The notes beneath the pieces are model-generated. The model made no database searches. It was not told the DNA's origin and saw nothing but the letters and a program-made list of their open reading frames with translations. Shown here piece after piece: positions 2,983 to 17,460 of a stretch of 64,000 nucleotides of DNA. The stretch covers positions 288,001 to 352,000 of the forward strand of contig CBDCNQ010000004.1 in NCBI GenBank assembly GCA_965219445.1, given 5' to 3'. Numbering within the stretch: the stretch's first letter is position 1; every line of letters starts with the position of its first letter. Made by a program: the position numbers and the translations under genes. This DNA is from Longimicrobiales bacterium. GTDB taxonomy: Bacteria > Gemmatimonadota > Gemmatimonadetes > Longimicrobiales > Gaopeijiaceae.

Positions 2983-3360
2983 CTATAGGATGAGTCCGTA
3001 CGAGACCCGCCCATTTTCCTTCTGCTTGTCGAAGATTCTGGCGTCCACGCCGTTCTTGAGCACCCATCGTACCGAGTTCCTATTCAGGGTCCTTCCGCCG
3101 ATGGTCGGCCCCAGTTCGACTATTCGCGATGCCCCGAGATACTGTGGGTGCACCGATCCAAGAATCCGTTTCACGGCGTTTTCGTTGGTGGGCTCGTCGT
3201 ACGCCTTAACGTTCGCAAAGTCTGGGTTGAAGGACAGCCTCGTGCCGTTGGGCTTATGGGTGTCCTCCTGGCTGCGCCGTCGGAGCACCTGCAAGGCCGC
3301 AGTGAGGGCCGTGATTTCTTCTTCAAGCGCCGTAATGGCGCTGTCATATGGAGTCGCCAC
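2983..3360 (-). CDS. IS passenger protein, 125 aa, N-terminal coiled coil plus possible winged-helix domain
   Basis: AGGAGG RBS before GTG at 3360; heptad stretch YDSAITALEEEITALTAALQVL. Confidence 0.6.
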   Translation of the reverse strand: MATPYDSAITALEEEITALTAALQVLRRRSQEDTHKPNGTRLSFNPDFANVKAYDEPTNENAVKRILGSVHPQYLGASRIVELGPTIGGRTLNRNSVRWVLKNGVDARIFDKQKENGRVSYGLIL

Positions 3361-5906: not shown

Positions 5907-6000
5907 GCACTCTAACGTTGTGCGATTCTACTGCGCGTCAATCTGCCGACCGCAAGCGAAGCGCGCGACCCTGACGTCTACCGCGACTGCAGCAATCGAT
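5907..6000 (-). repeat. attC-like integron recombination site (best-preserved copy)
   Basis: On + strand: GCACTCTAAC, arm CGATTCTACTGCGCG pairing with CGCGACTGCAGCAATCG with two extrahelical bases; far core box degraded. Confidence 0.7.
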
Positions 6001-9316: not shown

Positions 9317-9871
9317 GCGATGGTCCGCCCCCAGCTTCAGAGCCGAGATCGACCGCATCGTGGAAGAGTGTTCCAATTGGATACGTTGAACTACGTGTAG
9401 ATAAGTGCTGATTACGTAGGGATAACGGCCGGCTCTACTCCATCACCACCCGCCGCACAGTTTCCCTCCAGAGCGGCATCGCCTGCCTTCGGGAGGGACG
9501 GCCCCCCCCATCTCATGGGACCCACGACGGAAGGACCCGCTGGACGGTGACCCTACCGGCCTCCCAGCAATCAAGTAGCCTGGGCCAGGAGCCCAGACAT
9601 GAAAAAAAGCGGGGCGGACGTTAACGTCGTCCTTTGCTAGGTTGTTGAACTGAGTGCTTGATGCCGGACACAAAGAAAGGGGCCGCTCCTGTTGCTAGCG
9701 CCTTAGGACGCCTTAGAAGAGAAGAGAAGAAACTACGGACGGCAAACCGTATGATTGCTGACCTTTTTTTCGCCTGGTTTTGGCACTGTTCCCGGCACTG
9801 TTCGGGTTTTCGCGCCAGAAAAGAGAAAGTCCTTACAGCCGTAAGTGACTGCTGGTACTTCTCTTACGCAG

Positions 9872-9944
9872 TGGAGCCAGCCGGGATCGAACCGGCGACC
9901 TCTGGCTTGCAAAGCCAGCGCTCTCCCAACTGAGCTATGGCCCC
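9872..9944 (-). tRNA. tRNA-Ala(TGC)
   Basis: Canonical cloverleaf GGGGCCATAGCTCAG...TTTGCAA...TTCGATCCCGGCTGGCTCCA with G3:U70. Confidence 0.97.
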
Positions 9945-10040
9945 TCTTTGCTGCTTCCGTCCTGTAGGTAAGCGGTTTCCCCGTTTCCGCTAAACCCCGC
10001 CGATGAACAGGTGTGCACGTTGGTGTGCACGTTCGGGGTT

Positions 10041-10435
10041 TCACTGGGCCTCCCGAAGCTCACCCGCCCCAAGAACGACACGTAAGGTAGTCTCGCTGTC
10101 GGCCTGTTGGTAGGCGGTTTTCAGGCTAACCGTATTCTTCCATCCGCCAGCGTGCGCCACATCGACGTCCGGCATGTGCTTTCTCTCCGTTGCCCACTTC
10201 CGGCGGTAGCTGTGCCACAGAGTACCCCTCAACGGCTCCAGCCCTGCGAGCTTCTCTCCCTTCCGCAGCCATTTGTCTGCCAAGTGCCGTGTGATGGGCT
10301 TTGTCGGGTCCGCCGGTGACGGAAATAAGGGTGTGGCACCTATGCCGGGACGCTCCTTCACGATACGGTCCAAGGCGGCTCGTACGGGCGGTGAGACTGG
10401 GACGGTAGCCTCGTATCCAACCTTGTCTGTACCGG
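10041..10435 (-). pseudogene. Tyrosine recombinase/integrase C-terminal fragment
   Basis: WHSYRRKWAT (HxxR), GGW and AYQ (catalytic Tyr region); N-terminus missing. Confidence 0.8.
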
Positions 10436-10521
10436 AGCTGAATGTCCCCGAAGTCGTTGAGCACTTCCCACACGCTCTCCACCGGAGCCGCAATCTGACG
10501 AGTGATCGTGAATTCCGGCAT
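10436..10521 (-). pseudogene. SRPBCC N-terminal fragment
   Basis: AAGGAGG RBS then MPEFTITRQIAAPVESVWEVLNDFGDIQ, abruptly joined to integrase sequence. Confidence 0.65.
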
Positions 10522-10615
10522 CAGGGCCTCCTTAGGATAGAGCCGACGATCACCACGCCTTCCACGAAGACGCGAAGCCAGGGGATCTGCTTGCTCAATC
10601 AACTACCTCTTTCAC

Positions 10616-10685
10616 GCGCTCTAACGGATTTGCGATTCTGCTGCGCGGCTAATGTGGTGACCGCAGGCGTAGCGCGCGAGCCCTC
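10616..10685 (-). repeat. Partial attC-like site
   Basis: GCGCTCTAACGGATTTGCGATTCTGCTGCGCG plus shared internal motif; second arm missing. Confidence 0.65.
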
Positions 10686-10761
10686 AGTTGCCCCCGTCCT
10701 GGGGATGCGTCTCTATCCACTCGCGGGACACTCCACCGCCACGGTCCGTAAGCCGTCGCTA

Positions 10762-11946
10762 TCATCCTCCGTCCGGCCTGATCGCTATGGATTGGGGGCC
10801 ATCTCCGACAGTGATCGTGGAGGTGACTGTGTTGGTGGCGAGGTCGATCACCGACACGTCGTCCGAGAACTGCGACGCGACGTAAGCGAAGTCACCGTCC
10901 GGCCCGGTCGCGATGCCACCGGGGCCATCTCCGACAGCAATCGTGGAGGTGACGACGTTCGTCGCCAAGTTGATCACCGACACGTTGTCGGAAGAGAACA
11001 TCGCGACGTAAGCGAAGGCACCGTCCGGCCTGATCGCGATGTCAAAGGAGGTATTCCCGACAGCGATCGTGGAGATGACGCTGTTGGTCGCCAGGTCGAT
11101 CACCGACACGTTGTTGGCGTTCTGGTCTGCCACGTAGGCGAAGGCACCGTCCGGCCTGATCGCGATTTCCCCGGGTGTATCCCCAACAGGTAGAGATGTA
11201 ACTACGGCATTGGTGGCGAGGTCGATCACCGACACGTTACCGGAGAGTCCTCCCGTGACGTAAGCGAAGGCACCGTCCGGCCTGATCGCTATGCCAAAGG
11301 CGCCAACGATGACGGAAACCGTGGAGGTGACTGTGTTGGTGACCAGGTCGATCACCGACACTGTGGAGGCGCCCAAGTTCGTGACGTAGCCGAAGACTCC
11401 GTCCGGCCTGATCGCGATGCCAAAGGGGGAATCAAAATCGATCGTGGAGGTGACGACGTTGGTCGCCAGGTCGATCACCGACGCGTTGTCGGAGCGTCCG
11501 TTCACGACGTAGGCGAAGGCACCGGGAGCCGGAATCGGGTCGTTCACGGTGACCGACGCCGTTCCACTAGCGGAGCCAGAAGTCGCCGTGATCGTCGCCG
11601 TTCCATTGGCGACGGCCGTGACGAGCCCCGTGGACGAAACGCTCGCGACGGATGAGCTAGAGGACGCCCACGTAACGGACGCACCGCTCATCGTCACACC
11701 GTTCTGGTCCCCGACCGTCTCAGTAAGCTGTTGTGTTTCTCCTAGCGACGAGAAGCTCAGGATCGTGGGCGAGAGCATGACGGTCGTCGCAACGGGAGTT
11801 TCTGGCTCGGCGGGCGACCCGCAACTCGCCAGGACGGCGAGAAGAATGGTCAGGAGGGCGGCGGCACCGCCCGGCGCCGCGGTTCGTTGTACACTAACGG
11901 CTTCCTGCAACAATCTGGCGCGGACGATGGAGAGGGGCTTACGCAT
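10762..11946 (-). CDS. Lipoprotein with Ig-like (Big_2) domain and YVTN/YncE beta-propeller repeats
   Basis: LASC lipobox; WASS..VASVSSTGLVTAV; about six ~42-aa repeats GIAIRPDGAFAYV...VSVIDLATN. Confidence 0.85.
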   Translation of the reverse strand: MRKPLSIVRARLLQEAVSVQRTAAPGGAAALLTILLAVLASCGSPAEPETPVATTVMLSPTILSFSSLGETQQLTETVGDQNGVTMSGASVTWASSSSSVASVSSTGLVTAVANGTATITATSGSASGTASVTVNDPIPAPGAFAYVVNGRSDNASVIDLATNVVTSTIDFDSPFGIAIRPDGVFGYVTNLGASTVSVIDLVTNTVTSTVSVIVGAFGIAIRPDGAFAYVTGGLSGNVSVIDLATNAVVTSLPVGDTPGEIAIRPDGAFAYVADQNANNVSVIDLATNSVISTIAVGNTSFDIAIRPDGAFAYVAMFSSDNVSVINLATNVVTSTIAVGDGPGGIATGPDGDFAYVASQFSDDVSVIDLATNTVTSTITVGDGPQSIAIRPDGG

Positions 11947-12063
11947 GGCTGTCTCCTTCTAGCTTCGCCGCTGGAGGGGGAGAGCGGCTGGACACTACCG
12001 ATCCGATGTTATGCTACGGGAAGATTAGACGCAAGCCGACACCGTGCGTCTCACGCCTGACTC

Positions 12064-12106
12064 GAGAAGACGGCCACCTCCGAACGATGGGGGTGGCCGT
12101 TTCTCT
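12064..12106. terminator. Hairpin, probable terminator
   Basis: ACGGCCACC...GGTGGCCGT with pairing flanks, downstream of the 56-aa gene. Confidence 0.55.
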
Positions 12107-12149
12107 TGACCCGATCCTTACTTGAATCGTCTGGTGCCGTTCCCACGCG

Positions 12150-12320
12150 TCAGCGTGTAAAGGCGTAGTAGATCACGTAGAACCAAGAGAAGACCCCATG
12201 GATGACGGCCCATAGGATGGACTGATGCAGCGACCAGGAAATGACAATCGCAAGAGCGCTACCGAAGCCAATTCCGCCACGCACCGCGTGCCCCTTGGCG
12301 GCTCTGCGTTTGTCACTCAA
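12150..12320 (-). CDS. 56-aa small membrane protein (absent from the ORF track)
   Basis: GAGGAGG RBS, TTG start; MSDKRRAAKGHAVRGGIGFGSALAIVISWSLHQSILWAVIHGVFSWFYVIYYAFTR. Confidence 0.75.
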   Translation of the reverse strand: MSDKRRAAKGHAVRGGIGFGSALAIVISWSLHQSILWAVIHGVFSWFYVIYYAFTR

Positions 12321-12377
12321 AGCGTCCTCCTCATGATCGAGTTCCCTCGCGGACTTGCCGAACTGATCTGGGACTTC

Positions 12378-12425
12378 TGATGCTGCGCGGTTAATCTGCC
12401 GACCGCAAGCGAAGCGCGCGAGCCT
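12378..12425 (-). repeat. Degenerate attC-like site
   Basis: TGCTGCGCGGTTAATCTGCCGACCGCAAGCGAAGCGCGCGAGCCT, near-identical to 5931-5972. Confidence 0.6.
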
Positions 12426-12443
12426 CTAGCAGACCCTTCTCGT

Positions 12444-12934
12444 TCAACCAAAGGGCGTGATATGCGGGTTTTGATCGAACAGAGGCACGTCAACGAGTAG
12501 CTCGTCAACGAGGGCTATGAACTCAGCGGAAAAGACGCGCTCGACCCCGAAATTTTCCCACCACGCTCGCGCTTGCGGGGCTGATAGTGTCGCTAGAATT
12601 GAGCCTTGATACGATCGCCACGTGACGTCATCGAGTGTTCCGCTTTCGTATTGCAGCCAGTTGTTTTCCCGCATGCGGACGAATGTCACTAGTAAAAAGC
12701 TCACGCGAACTCTTTCTTCGTCGGTCAAATCCGGCTTGTACTGCAGAAGAAGCAGTTCCGGGCTCTCGATGTACAGCTCAAGAAACTGCTGATCCGAAGC
12801 AAGCATCGCCTGCCGGGTATCAGCCTGGGTCGCTCCGGCGTTCTGCTGAAGCTCGATCACTAGATACACAAGAGTAATCAGTATGGCCACAGAGCTAAAA
12901 ATCTCAGCGACGGCAGATGTCTTGGTCAGTTCAT
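12444..12934 (-). pseudogene. Hypothetical single-pass membrane protein with 1-bp frameshift at codon 3
   Basis: ATG AAC TG- ACC; adding one G gives MNWTKTSAVAEIFSSVAILITLVYL joined to ORF 12444..12890. Confidence 0.6.
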
Positions 12935-13145
12935 GGTTTTCCCTTTAGGATTGATGCGCTGATTCTGCGCCGTCTTAGGGGCGGGAGCGAGGCTGTCGGA
13001 GTTGAGTTCTCCGGAATTCGACGACCGCGATTCTGATCTTATAAGGCGAAAGGCTGACCTCACTCGAGCGGGACATTACGCTGATCTTGCTCAAAGGCCT
13101 TCCGCATCCCAACCCAAGGAGGATCACCATGCTCATCCGGATCGT

Positions 13146-13201
13146 GAGCCGCAAGCGAAGCGCGCGAGCCTGATGTCTACCGCGACAGTAGCAATCGCTT
13201 G
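13146..13201 (-). repeat. attC-like half site interrupted by IS110
   Basis: GCAAGCGAAGCGCGCGAGCCTGATGTCTACCGCGACAGTAGCAATCGCTTG; last 25 nt also at 1690-1714. Confidence 0.7.
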
Positions 13202-13292
13202 ATACTCATGCAGGCCCCCTCCTGGACCTCTCAGAGAGAGGACGGAATGATCAGAGCGCGACGCTCGATCCATCCAACCCAGGAGGGGAACC

Positions 13293-14339
13293 ATGCGCTT
13301 CTACACCGGCCAGCATCGATACTACTGTGGCATCGACCTTCACGCTCGCACGCTCTACCTCTGTATCCTGGACTGCCAGGGCAAGATACGACTACACAAG
13401 AGGCTACGCTGTGAGCGCGAGGCACTGCTTCGCGCCCTCGAGCCGTACCGTTCAGATCTCGTCGTGGGCAGCGAGTGCATCTTCTGCTGGTACTGGCTCG
13501 CCGATCTCTGTGCTCGCGAGCAGATCCCCTTCGTGCTCGGCCATGCGCTCTACATGAAGGCGATCCATGGGGCCAAGGCGAAGAACGACCACATCGACTC
13601 CCACAAGACGGCGGTGCTGCTGCGCGGGGGTGCCTTTCCGGTGGCCTACGTCTATCCCCCGCAGATGCGAGCCACGCGCGATGTGCTCCGGCGCCGACTC
13701 TACTTCGTACGCAAGCGCGGCGAACTCCTCGCCCACGTCCGTAACACCTTTCATCAGTACAACCTGCCTCGGCCCTCCGGTCAGCTCCTCTATAAGAAGA
13801 ACCGCGAGGGACTGGCCCAGGCATTCGACGATCGCATGATCCAGAGGACCATCGAGGCGGATCTCGCACTCGCGGATCGCTTCGACCCCGTGATCCGAGA
13901 ACTCGAGCGCACGATCGAAGAAGAAGCCCGCGTCCACGACCACGACACGCTGCAGCGGCTGCGAACCATCCCCGGCATTGGCCGCATCCTGGCCCTCACG
14001 CTGCTCTATGAGATCCACGACATCGCTCGCTTCAGCACGGTGCAGCGCTTCAGCTCCTACTGTCGACTCGCCAAGCCCGAGCACCGCAGTGCAGGCAAGC
14101 GAGTCGGCAGCGGAGGAGCCAAGATCGGCAACGCACACCTCAAGTGGGCGTTCAGTGAGGCGGCCGTCCTCTTCCTTCGCGACAACGTCCGCGGCCAGGC
14201 CCATCTCAAGAGGCTCGCGCGCCGCCACGGCAAGGGCAAGGCGCTCAGCATCCTTGCGGCTCGCATCGGACGCGCCACCTACTTCATGCTCAAGAACCGG
14301 GAGGCATTCGACACCGAACGCTTCTATACACGCACCTGA
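13293..14339 (+). CDS. IS110-family transposase
   Basis: CGIDLH (DEDD), KNDHIDS, TIPGIG, RSAG, GNAHLKWAFSEAA. Confidence 0.95.
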   Translation: MRFYTGQHRYYCGIDLHARTLYLCILDCQGKIRLHKRLRCEREALLRALEPYRSDLVVGSECIFCWYWLADLCAREQIPFVLGHALYMKAIHGAKAKNDHIDSHKTAVLLRGGAFPVAYVYPPQMRATRDVLRRRLYFVRKRGELLAHVRNTFHQYNLPRPSGQLLYKKNREGLAQAFDDRMIQRTIEADLALADRFDPVIRELERTIEEEARVHDHDTLQRLRTIPGIGRILALTLLYEIHDIARFSTVQRFSSYCRLAKPEHRSAGKRVGSGGAKIGNAHLKWAFSEAAVLFLRDNVRGQAHLKRLARRHGKGKALSILAARIGRATYFMLKNREAFDTERFYTRT

Positions 14340-14340
14340 C

Positions 14341-14461
14341 GGGGAGGGGAGGTTGTGAGCCTTGATTTCTAACTCGAGCGGGCACCGGATGCCTGACAGC
14401 CGCCTCGCTTGATTGGACGCCTCCTCCCGCTCCCCACACATCGAGTCGGTCTCACTCAGGA
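14341..14461 (+). ncRNA. Putative bridge/seek RNA (target-binding loop; 3' part lost)
   Basis: Stem GGGGAGGGGAGG/CCTCCCGCTCCCC enclosing TTTCTAAC (14366-14373) and TCGCTTG (14405-14411). Confidence 0.7.
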
Positions 14462-14561
14462 TGACGTCCCTCTCTGCCAACTTACGTGAGACACGGAGCA
14501 GCTAAGGAATTAGAGTAGGGCGAAGGCAGAGAAACCGAGGATGCTGAGACACCGAGAGAGA

Positions 14562-14990
14562 ATGAAAGAGAATGGAATAGCCCCACCAACCTGGGACGGT
14601 AAGCGAAGCGCGGCAGCTCCTGCGGACTCGGAGGTGGTAGATAGGCCGCTGCGCCGGCGGTTCGCTCCGTCGTACAAGCTGCGGATCGTCGAAGAAGCGG
14701 ACCGGTGCACGGAGCCCGGAGAGGTTGGCCGACTCCTACGGCGGGAGGGCTTGTACTCGTCGCACCTGACGACATGGCGCAAGGCGGCGCATAGCGGGTC
14801 CCTGAAAGCGCTGTCGAAGAAACGAGGCCGTAAGCGCGAGCGCAATCCGCTGGAGGAGAAGGTGCGCAAGCTGGAGCGCGAGAACACTCGCCTCGAGAAG
14901 GAGCTCCAGAAGGCGCACTTGATCATCGACGTCCAGGGAAAAGTTGCAGGGCTGCTGGGATTGAGCCTCGAGGACGGGACGAACTCATGA
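14562..14990 (+). CDS. Transposase OrfA
   Basis: RRRFAPSYKLRIV...LRREGLYSSHL..WR HTH; ATGA overlap with OrfB. Confidence 0.9.
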   Translation: MKENGIAPPTWDGKRSAAAPADSEVVDRPLRRRFAPSYKLRIVEEADRCTEPGEVGRLLRREGLYSSHLTTWRKAAHSGSLKALSKKRGRKRERNPLEEKVRKLERENTRLEKELQKAHLIIDVQGKVAGLLGLSLEDGTNS

Positions 14991-15994
14991 AGGCGACCCA
15001 GGAGCTAGCCAAGCACGTAGGGGTGAAGCCCGCGTGCGATGCGCTCAGGGTGCCGCGAGCCACGTTCTACCGTCGTCGGAGTGCATCGACCGGGCATCAG
15101 CAGCCCCGCCCGACCCCCGCCCGGGCCTTAAGTGAGAGGGAGCGGGACAAGATTTTCGACACCCTGTGTTCGGAGCGGTTCGTGGACCGGTCCCCAGCCG
15201 AGGTGGTGGCGACGCTGCTCGACGAGGACGTCTACCTGTGCAGCGAGCGTACGATGTATCGCGTTCTGGCTTCCCAGGTGCCGGTTCAGGAGCGTCGAGC
15301 GCAGCGGAGTCATCCCAAATACCAGAAGCCCGAGTTGATGGCGAGGGGCCCGAACCAGGTCTGGTCCTGGGATATCACCCGGCTGCTGGGGCCGAAGAAG
15401 TGGAGTTACTTCTACCTCTACGTGATCCTGGACATCTTCAGCCGCTACGTCGTGGGATGGATGGTGGCGGATCGGGAGAACTCTGCCCTGGCCAGCCGGC
15501 TGATCCAGCAGAGTTGCTTGAAGCATGGCGTCCAGCCCCACCTCCTGACCCTGCATTCCGATCGAGGGGCTCCGATGACGAGCCAATGCACGGCTCAACT
15601 ACTCGCCGATCTCGGCGTGACCCGCTCGTTGGGCCGACCCCAGGTCTCGGATGACAATCCGTTCTCCGAGGCTCAGTTCAAGACCTTGAAGTACCATCCC
15701 TCGTTTCCCGGCCGGTTCGGGGATCAGGGGCAAGCCAAGACCTTCTGTCGCTCGTTCTTCCGTTGGTATAATGCCGAGCACCGCCATGGCGGCATCTCGA
15801 TGCTGACCCCCGAACAGGTCCACTTCGGTCACGCCGATCGGATCATCGCCTGCAGGAAGGCCGTGCTCCGTGAGGCATGGGCCGCTCATCCCGAGCGCTT
15901 CGTCTCCGGTGAGCCGAAGCCTAAACCACTCCCGGAGGCCGTCTGGATCAATCCTCCCACCCCATCCCTCACGACACAGGAGATTGCTCTCTAA
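14987..15994 (+). CDS. Transposase OrfB (rve/DDE)
   Basis: WSWDIT, LHSDRG, DNPFSEA. Confidence 0.93.
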   Translation: MKATQELAKHVGVKPACDALRVPRATFYRRRSASTGHQQPRPTPARALSERERDKIFDTLCSERFVDRSPAEVVATLLDEDVYLCSERTMYRVLASQVPVQERRAQRSHPKYQKPELMARGPNQVWSWDITRLLGPKKWSYFYLYVILDIFSRYVVGWMVADRENSALASRLIQQSCLKHGVQPHLLTLHSDRGAPMTSQCTAQLLADLGVTRSLGRPQVSDDNPFSEAQFKTLKYHPSFPGRFGDQGQAKTFCRSFFRWYNAEHRHGGISMLTPEQVHFGHADRIIACRKAVLREAWAAHPERFVSGEPKPKPLPEAVWINPPTPSLTTQEIAL

Positions 15995-16056
15995 TTGATT
16001 TCCAAGAGTGTCTCACTGGCGTTGACAGGTTCCGCCCTCTCCTGCGGTACCACTTG

Positions 16057-16950
16057 CTATGTTAGACCTGAAGCCATTGGCGGTCCCTGGAGCTGAGGCA
16101 TTCTGAGGAACCAAGGTGATGGTTTCAATGCTTCCGGAGCGGGGGGTAGACCGCCGCAGGCGCTGTGGGGTCGAACGGTATTGTACACCCGCCGCCACTG
16201 CTCGACGAGTACGACGGCCTCGGGCAGTGTGTAAAAGATCTCTCCGTTCAAGAACTCGTTCCTCAGCTTGCCGTTGAAGCTCTCGTTGTAGCCGTTCTCC
16301 CACGGACTGCCCGGCGCGATGTAGAGGATCTGGACCCGCAGCCTGGCCAGCCATCTCCGCACCAGTTTCGCCGTGAACTCTGGCCCGTTGTCCGAGCGCA
16401 GATGCTCGGGCGGACCGTGCCGAGCGAAGAGATCGGTGAGCACCTCGAGAACGTCGTGAGCTCGAGTCTTTCGACCGACCTTGATCGCCAGACACTGCCG
16501 CGTGTACTCGTCGAGCACGGTCAGAAGCTTCAGCGCACGGCCGTCATGGGTCCTCGTGCTTACGAAGTCGTAGGACCACACGTGATTCTTGTGCAGTGGC
16601 CTGAGCCGGATGCACGAGCCATCGTTGAGCCACAACCGACCCCGTTTCGGTTGCCGTCTGGGCACTTTCAGCCCCTCCTGCCTCCAGATACGCTCCACAC
16701 GCTTGTGGTTCACCTCCCAGCCCTCGATGCGTAGCAGGTTCGTGATCTGTCGATACCCGTACCTGCCGAACCGGCTCGCCAACCGTATCACGTCCGTGCG
16801 TAGCGCCGACTCGTCGACCCGCACCTTCTTCACCCGACGCTGAGTCGAGCGCGGCTGACCCAGTACGTGACACGCGTGACGTTCACTCGCCCCGAGTCGC
16901 TGACGTACATGCACCACGCACCTCCGTCGGCGCTCGGGGCTCAGAAGTTT
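16057..16950 (-). CDS. IS3 (IS407-like) OrfB, probably expressed by -1 frameshift
   Basis: [22 protein letters not shown]. Confidence 0.93.
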
Positions 16951-17219
16951 CCCTTGGTCGCTTCCTCCAGGATCAGCTTGTCCACCGTCAGGTTCGCCAC
17001 CGCTCGCTTCAGCCGTGCGTTCTCCTTCTCCAGCTCCTTGAAGCGTCGAGCTTGATCCACCTTCATCCCCCCGAACTCCTGGCGCCACCGGTAGTACGTC
17101 TGCTCGCTGATCCCCAGCTCCCGGCTCACCATCCCCACCGTTTTGCCGTTCGCCAGACCCACCTCCGCCTCTCTCAATGCCGTGATGATCTGCTCCGGCG
17201 TGTGTCGTCTCCTACTCAT
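16941..17219 (-). CDS. IS3 (IS407-like) OrfA
   Basis: HTPEQII...[11 protein letters not shown]...[10 protein letters not shown]. Confidence 0.93.
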
Positions 17220-17418
17220 TCTGACCTCCTCCCTGATGGTTGCGACCAAAGCCGCATCCTAACATCAACTTCGGTCTCGGTTCAGGGGGTCACGTCACAC
17301 GTTCGTGTGCACGTTGGCGTACTCTAAGCCCGTGAACGGTCTGAAGATCGTACTCGGGGTTAGGGGAGGAATCCCTTATTCTGACTGGAGAATTGCGAAA
17401 ACCGGGATCTGTCCAGCG

Positions 17419-17460
17419 GGCTTGCAAAGCCAGCGCTCTCCCAACTGAGCTATGGCCCCT
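17419..17460 (-). repeat. att-site duplicate of the tRNA-Ala 5' half
   Basis: 42 bp identical to 9904-9945. Confidence 0.9.

Follow-up and report, generated by a model that had tools for sequence, protein, structure and literature searches.

We describe an element of the IS110 family, from the ISGsu4/ISMahy12 lineage, that is inserted at the TAAC end of integron attC sites. It is very probably steered there by an RNA from its own downstream non-coding end, the first loop of which (loop 1) would pair with both strands of the target. RNA-guided targeting of attC has been published for ISKpn4, ISPst6 and ISPa25 (PMC11187229, available text), and RNA-guided insertion into attC is by itself a fresh example of that 2024 result. 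What would be added here is a second, unrelated IS110 lineage that converged on the same attC end, together with a duplicated target loop that bears on the question of seekRNA versus bridge RNA.

The element was found in the window, the whole 64,000-nucleotide stretch of DNA that was analysed (G000:C4:288001-352000). The window copy is a broken member of this lineage, which is 1.6 kb long when intact. It keeps an intact plus-strand frame for a recombinase of 348 amino acids (13293..14339) that matches PF01548 and PF02371 and scores 189.7 bits against NF033542 (cut-off 140), in agreement with its first-pass assignment to IS110. In alignment, the DEDD and serine positions of IS621 correspond to D15, E61, D99, D102 and S266, and the protein has the domains of the IS110 superfamily, a DEDD RuvC-like domain and Transposase_20 with its catalytic serine.

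Counting one core, the intact element measures 1597 bases, with 91 bases upstream of the gene and 459 after the stop codon; one such copy lies at G000:C2:285784-287380 on the minus strand. The left end of the window copy (13202..13292, plus strand) starts with the donor half-site and holds the predicted -10 of a putative circle-junction promoter. It includes the left subterminal inverted repeat CAGGCCCCC (13211..13219, plus), whose partner GGGGGCCTG in the right end is absent from this copy; in intact copies these 9-bp repeats are separated from the core by 9 and 5 bases. Downstream of the gene, 122 of the 459 bases remain and the final 337 are gone. Identity with intact copies ends at 14461, where the linker toward the second loop (14436..14461, plus) is cut, so that the right junction is lost, as had been proposed. 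Only the first of three loops is present, while loop 2, the donor loop, the right repeat and the right flank are missing. Because its right end is gone, the window copy is presumably immobile as it stands.

Loop 1 is predicted as an RNA hairpin at 14341..14435 (plus). It encloses a 5′ guide, TTTCTAAC (14366..14373, plus), complementary to the G of the core and the right flank, and a 3′ guide, TCGCTTG (14405..14411, plus), a copy of the left flank and core; both motifs lie where the first-pass annotation had read them. The 3′ guide is followed by AT (14412..14413, plus), the dinucleotide with which the left end of the element also begins; by analogy with IS621 these would serve as handshake bases. 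AT follows the loop-1 guide in 95 of the 96 cases scored, and the elements begin with AT in 101/101, a position fixed by the search pattern.

The outer stem that had been proposed around the guides stands: 14340-14440 folds at -48.1 kcal/mol (z = -3.95), none of 200 shuffles was as stable, and 3 of 17 pairs carry compensatory changes in 18 sequences. The minimum-energy fold of the single sequence, however, has most of the guide bases paired, and the open loop is therefore a prediction. In the alignment fold of loop 1 the interior is open and no inner stem is resolved. The complete non-coding end of a relative folds with a stability that is not unusual (z = -1.23), and an Rfam search gave no match at E up to 1. 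TCTAAC and TCGCTTG occur together in 2 of 50,000 dinucleotide shuffles of 14340-14461, a test that overstates significance because the motifs were chosen post hoc.

The junctions agree with these guides. The genome contains nine matches to the element, and the eight that keep the left end all read ATCGCT-TG|ATACTC; the left junction first read in the window (flank TCGCT plus core TG at 13195..13201, plus, the core being 13200-13201) is thus shared by every left end. Five right ends read GGGGGCCTG-ATAAG-TG, followed by TTAGAC, TTAGAC, TTAGAG, TTAGAG and TTATGC. The right flank TTAGA, which the first-pass annotation had expected of complete copies, is therefore seen in four of the five, the fifth being TTATG. 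Both junctions are kept in three copies, and a diverged sixth right end (37 bases, 86%) continues into TTTGG. Rather than lying away from the predicted site, the copies of this genome fit loop 1 at all their junctions, with mismatches in one of the five right flanks.

TG is present at both ends of the element, with no target duplication beyond the core, as judged from the junctions and from an empty site. This empty site comes from six contigs of run X3, in which ...CCATCTAA runs on into CAAGCGA at the core position (consensus agreement 0.61). A search of the whole genome found no intact copy of the 12-base target; with no intact empty site left, the element may freeze cassette arrays. The full copy at C2:275698 has an attC-like left flank of only about 11 bases.

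The repeats that carry the element appear to be attC sites. Reconstructed 101-bp sites read GTCTAAC-AAGCG...GTTAGAT and GCATAAC-AAGCG...GTTAGAT; the attC boxes RYYYAAC and GTTRRRY are both found in two of three reconstructed sites, one of them with 6/7 at R″, and the third lacks the far end. In the window, the attC remnant (13149..13201, top strand probably minus) likewise misses its far end and keeps the arm beside the insertion, the same arm as in the 101-bp sites around the other copies. The proposal of an insertion in an attC core site seems right as to attC, but the end concerned is most likely the inverse core (R″, TAAC) and not the crossover core, to judge from the spacer of 5 bp and from the ORFs nearby on the minus strand. 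The element lies opposite to the cassette genes, an orientation that in the window is deduced from the ORFs.

An integron integrase (TIGR02249, 345.5 bits, cut-off 265) is encoded at C2:398574-399617, about 4 kb from the nearest element copy of a cluster that comprises five element matches and one right-end fragment. All four recognisable attC sites of this array (G000:C2:384000-399617) are interrupted by the IS110 element. The integrase frame starts without an obvious early ATG, and a RelE/HigB-like toxin-antitoxin pair, recognised by eye, lies just past a right junction (about 393100-393700 of the same contig). The window itself has further degenerate attC remnants at 1662-1714, 5950-5998, 10639-10682 and 12381-12424, and a TCGCTTG at 1708 may be another damaged junction.

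Beyond this genome, the flanks of relatives follow the consensus GCA-N5-T-TG-TTAG (96 left and 87 right flanks). On plasmids of Vibrio campbellii, Alteromonas and Pseudoalteromonas, the copies lie within palindromic repeats, share these junctions wherever they are preserved, and have both target-like loops; the Vibrio repeat around the plasmid copy is presumably a VCR-type site. A crude two-arm attC test across the family gave a weak result, with 11 of 47 sites passing against 4.9 expected. The arms are complementary by eye, and the minimum-energy DNA folds of the reconstructed sites are not the full canonical hairpin.

Covariation between loop 1 and its flanks was measured in a sample made of the best 80 of 519 genome-contig matches, the best 80 of 584 metagenome matches and one intact copy of our own genome. 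Nineteen of these 161 loci were excluded as too short, and 52 of the 142 long enough lack at least one guide call (truncation, divergence and pattern failure pooled). The extraction patterns fix the TAAC and TTG letters, so that conservation of these letters is partly built in, and the test was confined to variable positions. Loop 1 matches the right flank at 2.97 of 5 positions compared to 2.32 after permutation (n=71, p=5e-5) and the left flank at 3.60 of 7 compared to 2.52 (n=55, p=5e-5). When each 80%-identity cluster was represented by a single locus (n=26 right, n=21 left), the highest p values over 20 draws were 0.003 and 0.0005, respectively. Covariation extends over seven positions on the TAAC side and five (-1 to -5) on the other, and is absent at -6/-7, which bears out the 7-2-5 geometry of the first-pass annotation.

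The same data bear on whether the protein reads the shape of the attC hairpin, with the sequence matches being captured flank or chance. Many relatives do occupy sites with several mismatches to their loop-1 guides, a high tolerance that shape reading would account for, and the abstract of a 2026 preprint raises the question of further layers of IS110 specificity on top of RNA-DNA pairing. Nonetheless, we consider shape reading very improbable as the explanation: covariation is seen position by position on both flanks and in the donor loop, and two distant relatives, at 30% identity, look retargeted, with different 5′ guides and correspondingly different right flanks (read by eye). Hairpin shape may add to the guide but not replace it.

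We compared the element with the known attC-targeting systems. Among named elements, ISGsu4 and ISMahy12 come closest at the protein level; they are of the same lineage as ISGsu5, ISShfr7 and ISShwo5 (ISfinder names, from the supplements of PMC11187229 and PMC11208160), and 109 of the first 158 residues are identical to ISGsu4 (counted by eye). These source tables, as far as available, class ISGsu4 as IS110 and ISMahy12 as IS1111. The IS1111-attC group (ISPa21, ISKpn4, ISPst6, ISPa25), as described in the available text of PMC11187229, shares much with the window element: guidance by RNA to a point near the attC TAAC end, insertion opposite to the cassette genes, a non-coding region downstream, subterminal repeats, and a top-strand match placed 5′ of the bottom-strand match. 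Accordingly, one could take the element for an ordinary member of this group. ISPa21 stands here for the IS110 after smr in plasmid pKKp4-VIM, named from its cassette order (PMC5724420 and PMC7232449, available text) and recorded as "IS110 family transposase".

Membership of the IS1111-attC group is nevertheless extremely improbable. The ISPa21 protein is 18.5% identical to the window protein and groups with ISEc11 and IS4321 at 100/99; the window protein is 17-20% identical to ISEc11, IS4321 and a Vibrio IS1111-type protein and falls outside their 100/99 clade. A grouping with ISPa21/ISPst6 was not obtained in a tree flagged for long branches, and the separation therefore rests on the pairwise identities. 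The published matrix (PMC11187229, available part) likewise places ISGsu4 and ISMahy12 at 17-18% to ISPst6, ISKpn4, ISPa21 and ISPa25. In place of the GL-P----S/TG motif of the IS1111 type, the window protein reads RLAKPEHRSAG. The insertion points also differ, the right junction of ISPa21 being followed by GAATTGTTAG, 6 bases deeper into attC than that of the window element (junction table of PMC13604230, available part). The non-coding end measures 459 nt in the intact copy of the window lineage and about 260 nt in ISPa21, and for the IS1111-attC group long seekRNAs of 148-151 nt are given (PMC13604230) and no second target loop is described. In the sense of PMC11187229 (available text), the subterminal inverted repeats and the long downstream non-coding region (459 nt against 91 upstream) are those of the IS1111 family, and the non-coding loops match and covary with target and donor as in the IS110 superfamily (the donor loop in intact copies only). 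Judged from sequence, the element appears to work like a seekRNA/bridge system, as a member of the IS110 superfamily with IS1111-like ends that stands outside the IS1111-attC group.

The lineage is large, with at least 7999 members (7999 of 8000 candidates scored pass E 1e-20). It is present in 12 of 121 family genomes searched and ranges over Gemmatimonadota, Desulfobacterota, Nitrospirota, Planctomycetota, Balneolota and marine Gammaproteobacteria. We found no description of its target or RNA, or of two target loops, in a search of openly accessible papers and preprints.

In intact copies, loop 1 is followed by another module, closed by the same motif and carrying TAAC...TTG guides, and then by the donor loop. 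By its sequence this loop 2 is a putative paralogous, target-like loop beside the donor loop. The 3′ guide of the donor loop copies the right end (p=0.0005, n=11), and covariation links its 5′ guide to the left end (p=5e-5, n=36), with a conserved mismatch at the third position of the 5′ guide in 36/36.

Three properties of loop 2 are what one would expect if it were a second working target loop, giving one RNA two classes of site (dual specificity or a retargeting reserve). It shares the closing motif and geometry of loop 1, and 10 of its pairs are conserved across 36 sequences; all four target guides are called in 90 of the 142 long-enough loci; and the right flanks give a weak signal before clustering (p=0.004). 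This signal disappears after clustering (median p about 0.1 on both sides), and at 40 sites the better fit is to loop 1 in 33 and to loop 2 in 4, with 3 ties. At sites that mismatch loop 1, loop 2 matches at chance (0.393 vs 0.391; 0.314 vs 0.405), all junctions of our own genome fit loop 1, and the AT handshake follows just 11 of 92 loop-2 guides. We therefore rejected loop 2 as the guide to the observed insertion sites, which it does not track after clustering.

Other targets for loop 2 were also considered. A by-eye comparison with the other attC end and with the -35 region of the element gave no fit. The predicted loop-2 site has an exact 13-base match across the stop codon of an IS256-type transposase, in three copies of that element in the genome (G000:C1:211187, C5:478073 and C5:1044338), which again would favour dual specificity. 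Yet these sites are unoccupied, the three copies count as one event, and the predicted loop-2 sites of relatives have no match in three genomes; the IS256-type match was thus treated as chance. Taken with the flanks, this leaves a second working target loop distinctly unlikely.

We also regard it as unlikely, to a lesser degree, that loop 2 is a decayed duplicate retained as a protein-binding scaffold, with pairing left to loop 1 and the donor loop. The outer guide positions of loop 2 fail to track the sites, as such decay would predict. Its TAAC and TTG columns, however, are invariant or nearly so across 55-97% protein identity (in part built into the selection), for which a scaffold has no obvious need. 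At two loci (L027 and L142) three TAAC-type 5′ guides were called, possibly a third target loop. At another locus (L002, about 2990-3140) the final 143 bases of the right end, from an internal copy of the donor guide onward, are repeated after it, as if the right end had recombined with its own guide sequence.

For the RNA-guided insertion that we favour, the IS621 and ISKpn4 work suggests the course of events. The element would be excised or copied out to a circle, in which the joined ends would create a promoter (TTGACT, 17 bases, GATACT). The resulting RNA would be bound by the recombinase, loop 1 would base-pair with both strands of the attC site, and a recombinase tetramer would exchange strands at the TG core. 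In 68 of 87 right ends, a TTG-type -35 hexamer precedes the right junction by 24-25 nt, and a promoter scan of the linear element returned no site. Among the contigs of four runs, no circle joint was found. Two RNA runs yielded three small contigs, of a kind that says nothing about expression, and no transcript was seen.

Tentatively, we suggest a division of labour in which site choice would fall to loop 1 as a free-standing seek module, and loop 2 and the donor loop would together form a bridge unit that needs the invariant TTGTTA core only. This suggestion is favoured because of the analogy with CazIS110-1 (bioRxiv 10.1101/2025.10.25.684509, available text), in which a free target loop cooperates with a full bridge RNA, a model borrowed here for loops 1 and 2. 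The two RNAs of CazIS110-1 derive from one loop by truncation, whereas the window lineage encodes two separate loops. It is a real possibility, if somewhat short of an even chance, that this lineage adopted attC on its own, apart from the IS1111-attC group, and came to encode a guide RNA of three fixed modules: a seek loop, plus a bridge unit whose target loop reads the core only, for a separate step (excision or second-end transfer) or for a second target class. If true, the three-module RNA would be a natural split-guide system and would account for a sharing of tasks between a short seekRNA and a full bridge RNA.

The nearest solved structures to the window protein are those of IS621 and ISCro4 (E 2.8e-6 and 9.3e-6). 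According to the available text of PMC11208160 and PMC13626964, these systems share with the element a 2-base core, target and donor loops, and the handshake bases predicted here. Unlike in these systems, the RNA of the window lineage lies downstream and not upstream of the gene, with the guide order reversed relative to the gene, and the lineage has 9-bp subterminal repeats, three loops and the third-position mismatch of the donor 5′ guide. Group IIC-attC introns (PMC3001079, available text) are unrelated mobile elements that also insert into the attC bottom strand, but they are retro-elements with a different chemistry.

Finally, we looked at what broke the window copy. The break at 14461 abuts TGACGT, the probable end of an IS3-family element (TGACGT...ACGTCA) on the minus strand that would span 14462..17297. 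A second, rve-type element appears to be nested in it (about 14468-16033). The remainder of the IS110 element was looked for beyond the IS3-family element and not found, which makes a deletion likely, with the IS3-family element as its likely cause. The left end of the rve-type element has 22 more near-identical and 4 diverged copies in the genome. Its sequence abuts most of the truncated IS110 copies, and the rve-type element thus seems to dismantle arrays.

In the surroundings, a tRNA-Ala gene lies at 9871-9944 (minus); 42 of its bases recur at 17419-17460, and 10041-10493 holds a piece of an integrase. This region (9871-17460) has the look of a decayed tRNA-integrated island that houses the cassette remnants and insertion elements. 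A lipoprotein-like gene at 10762-11946 (minus) encodes an Ig-like segment and 42-aa beta-propeller repeats.
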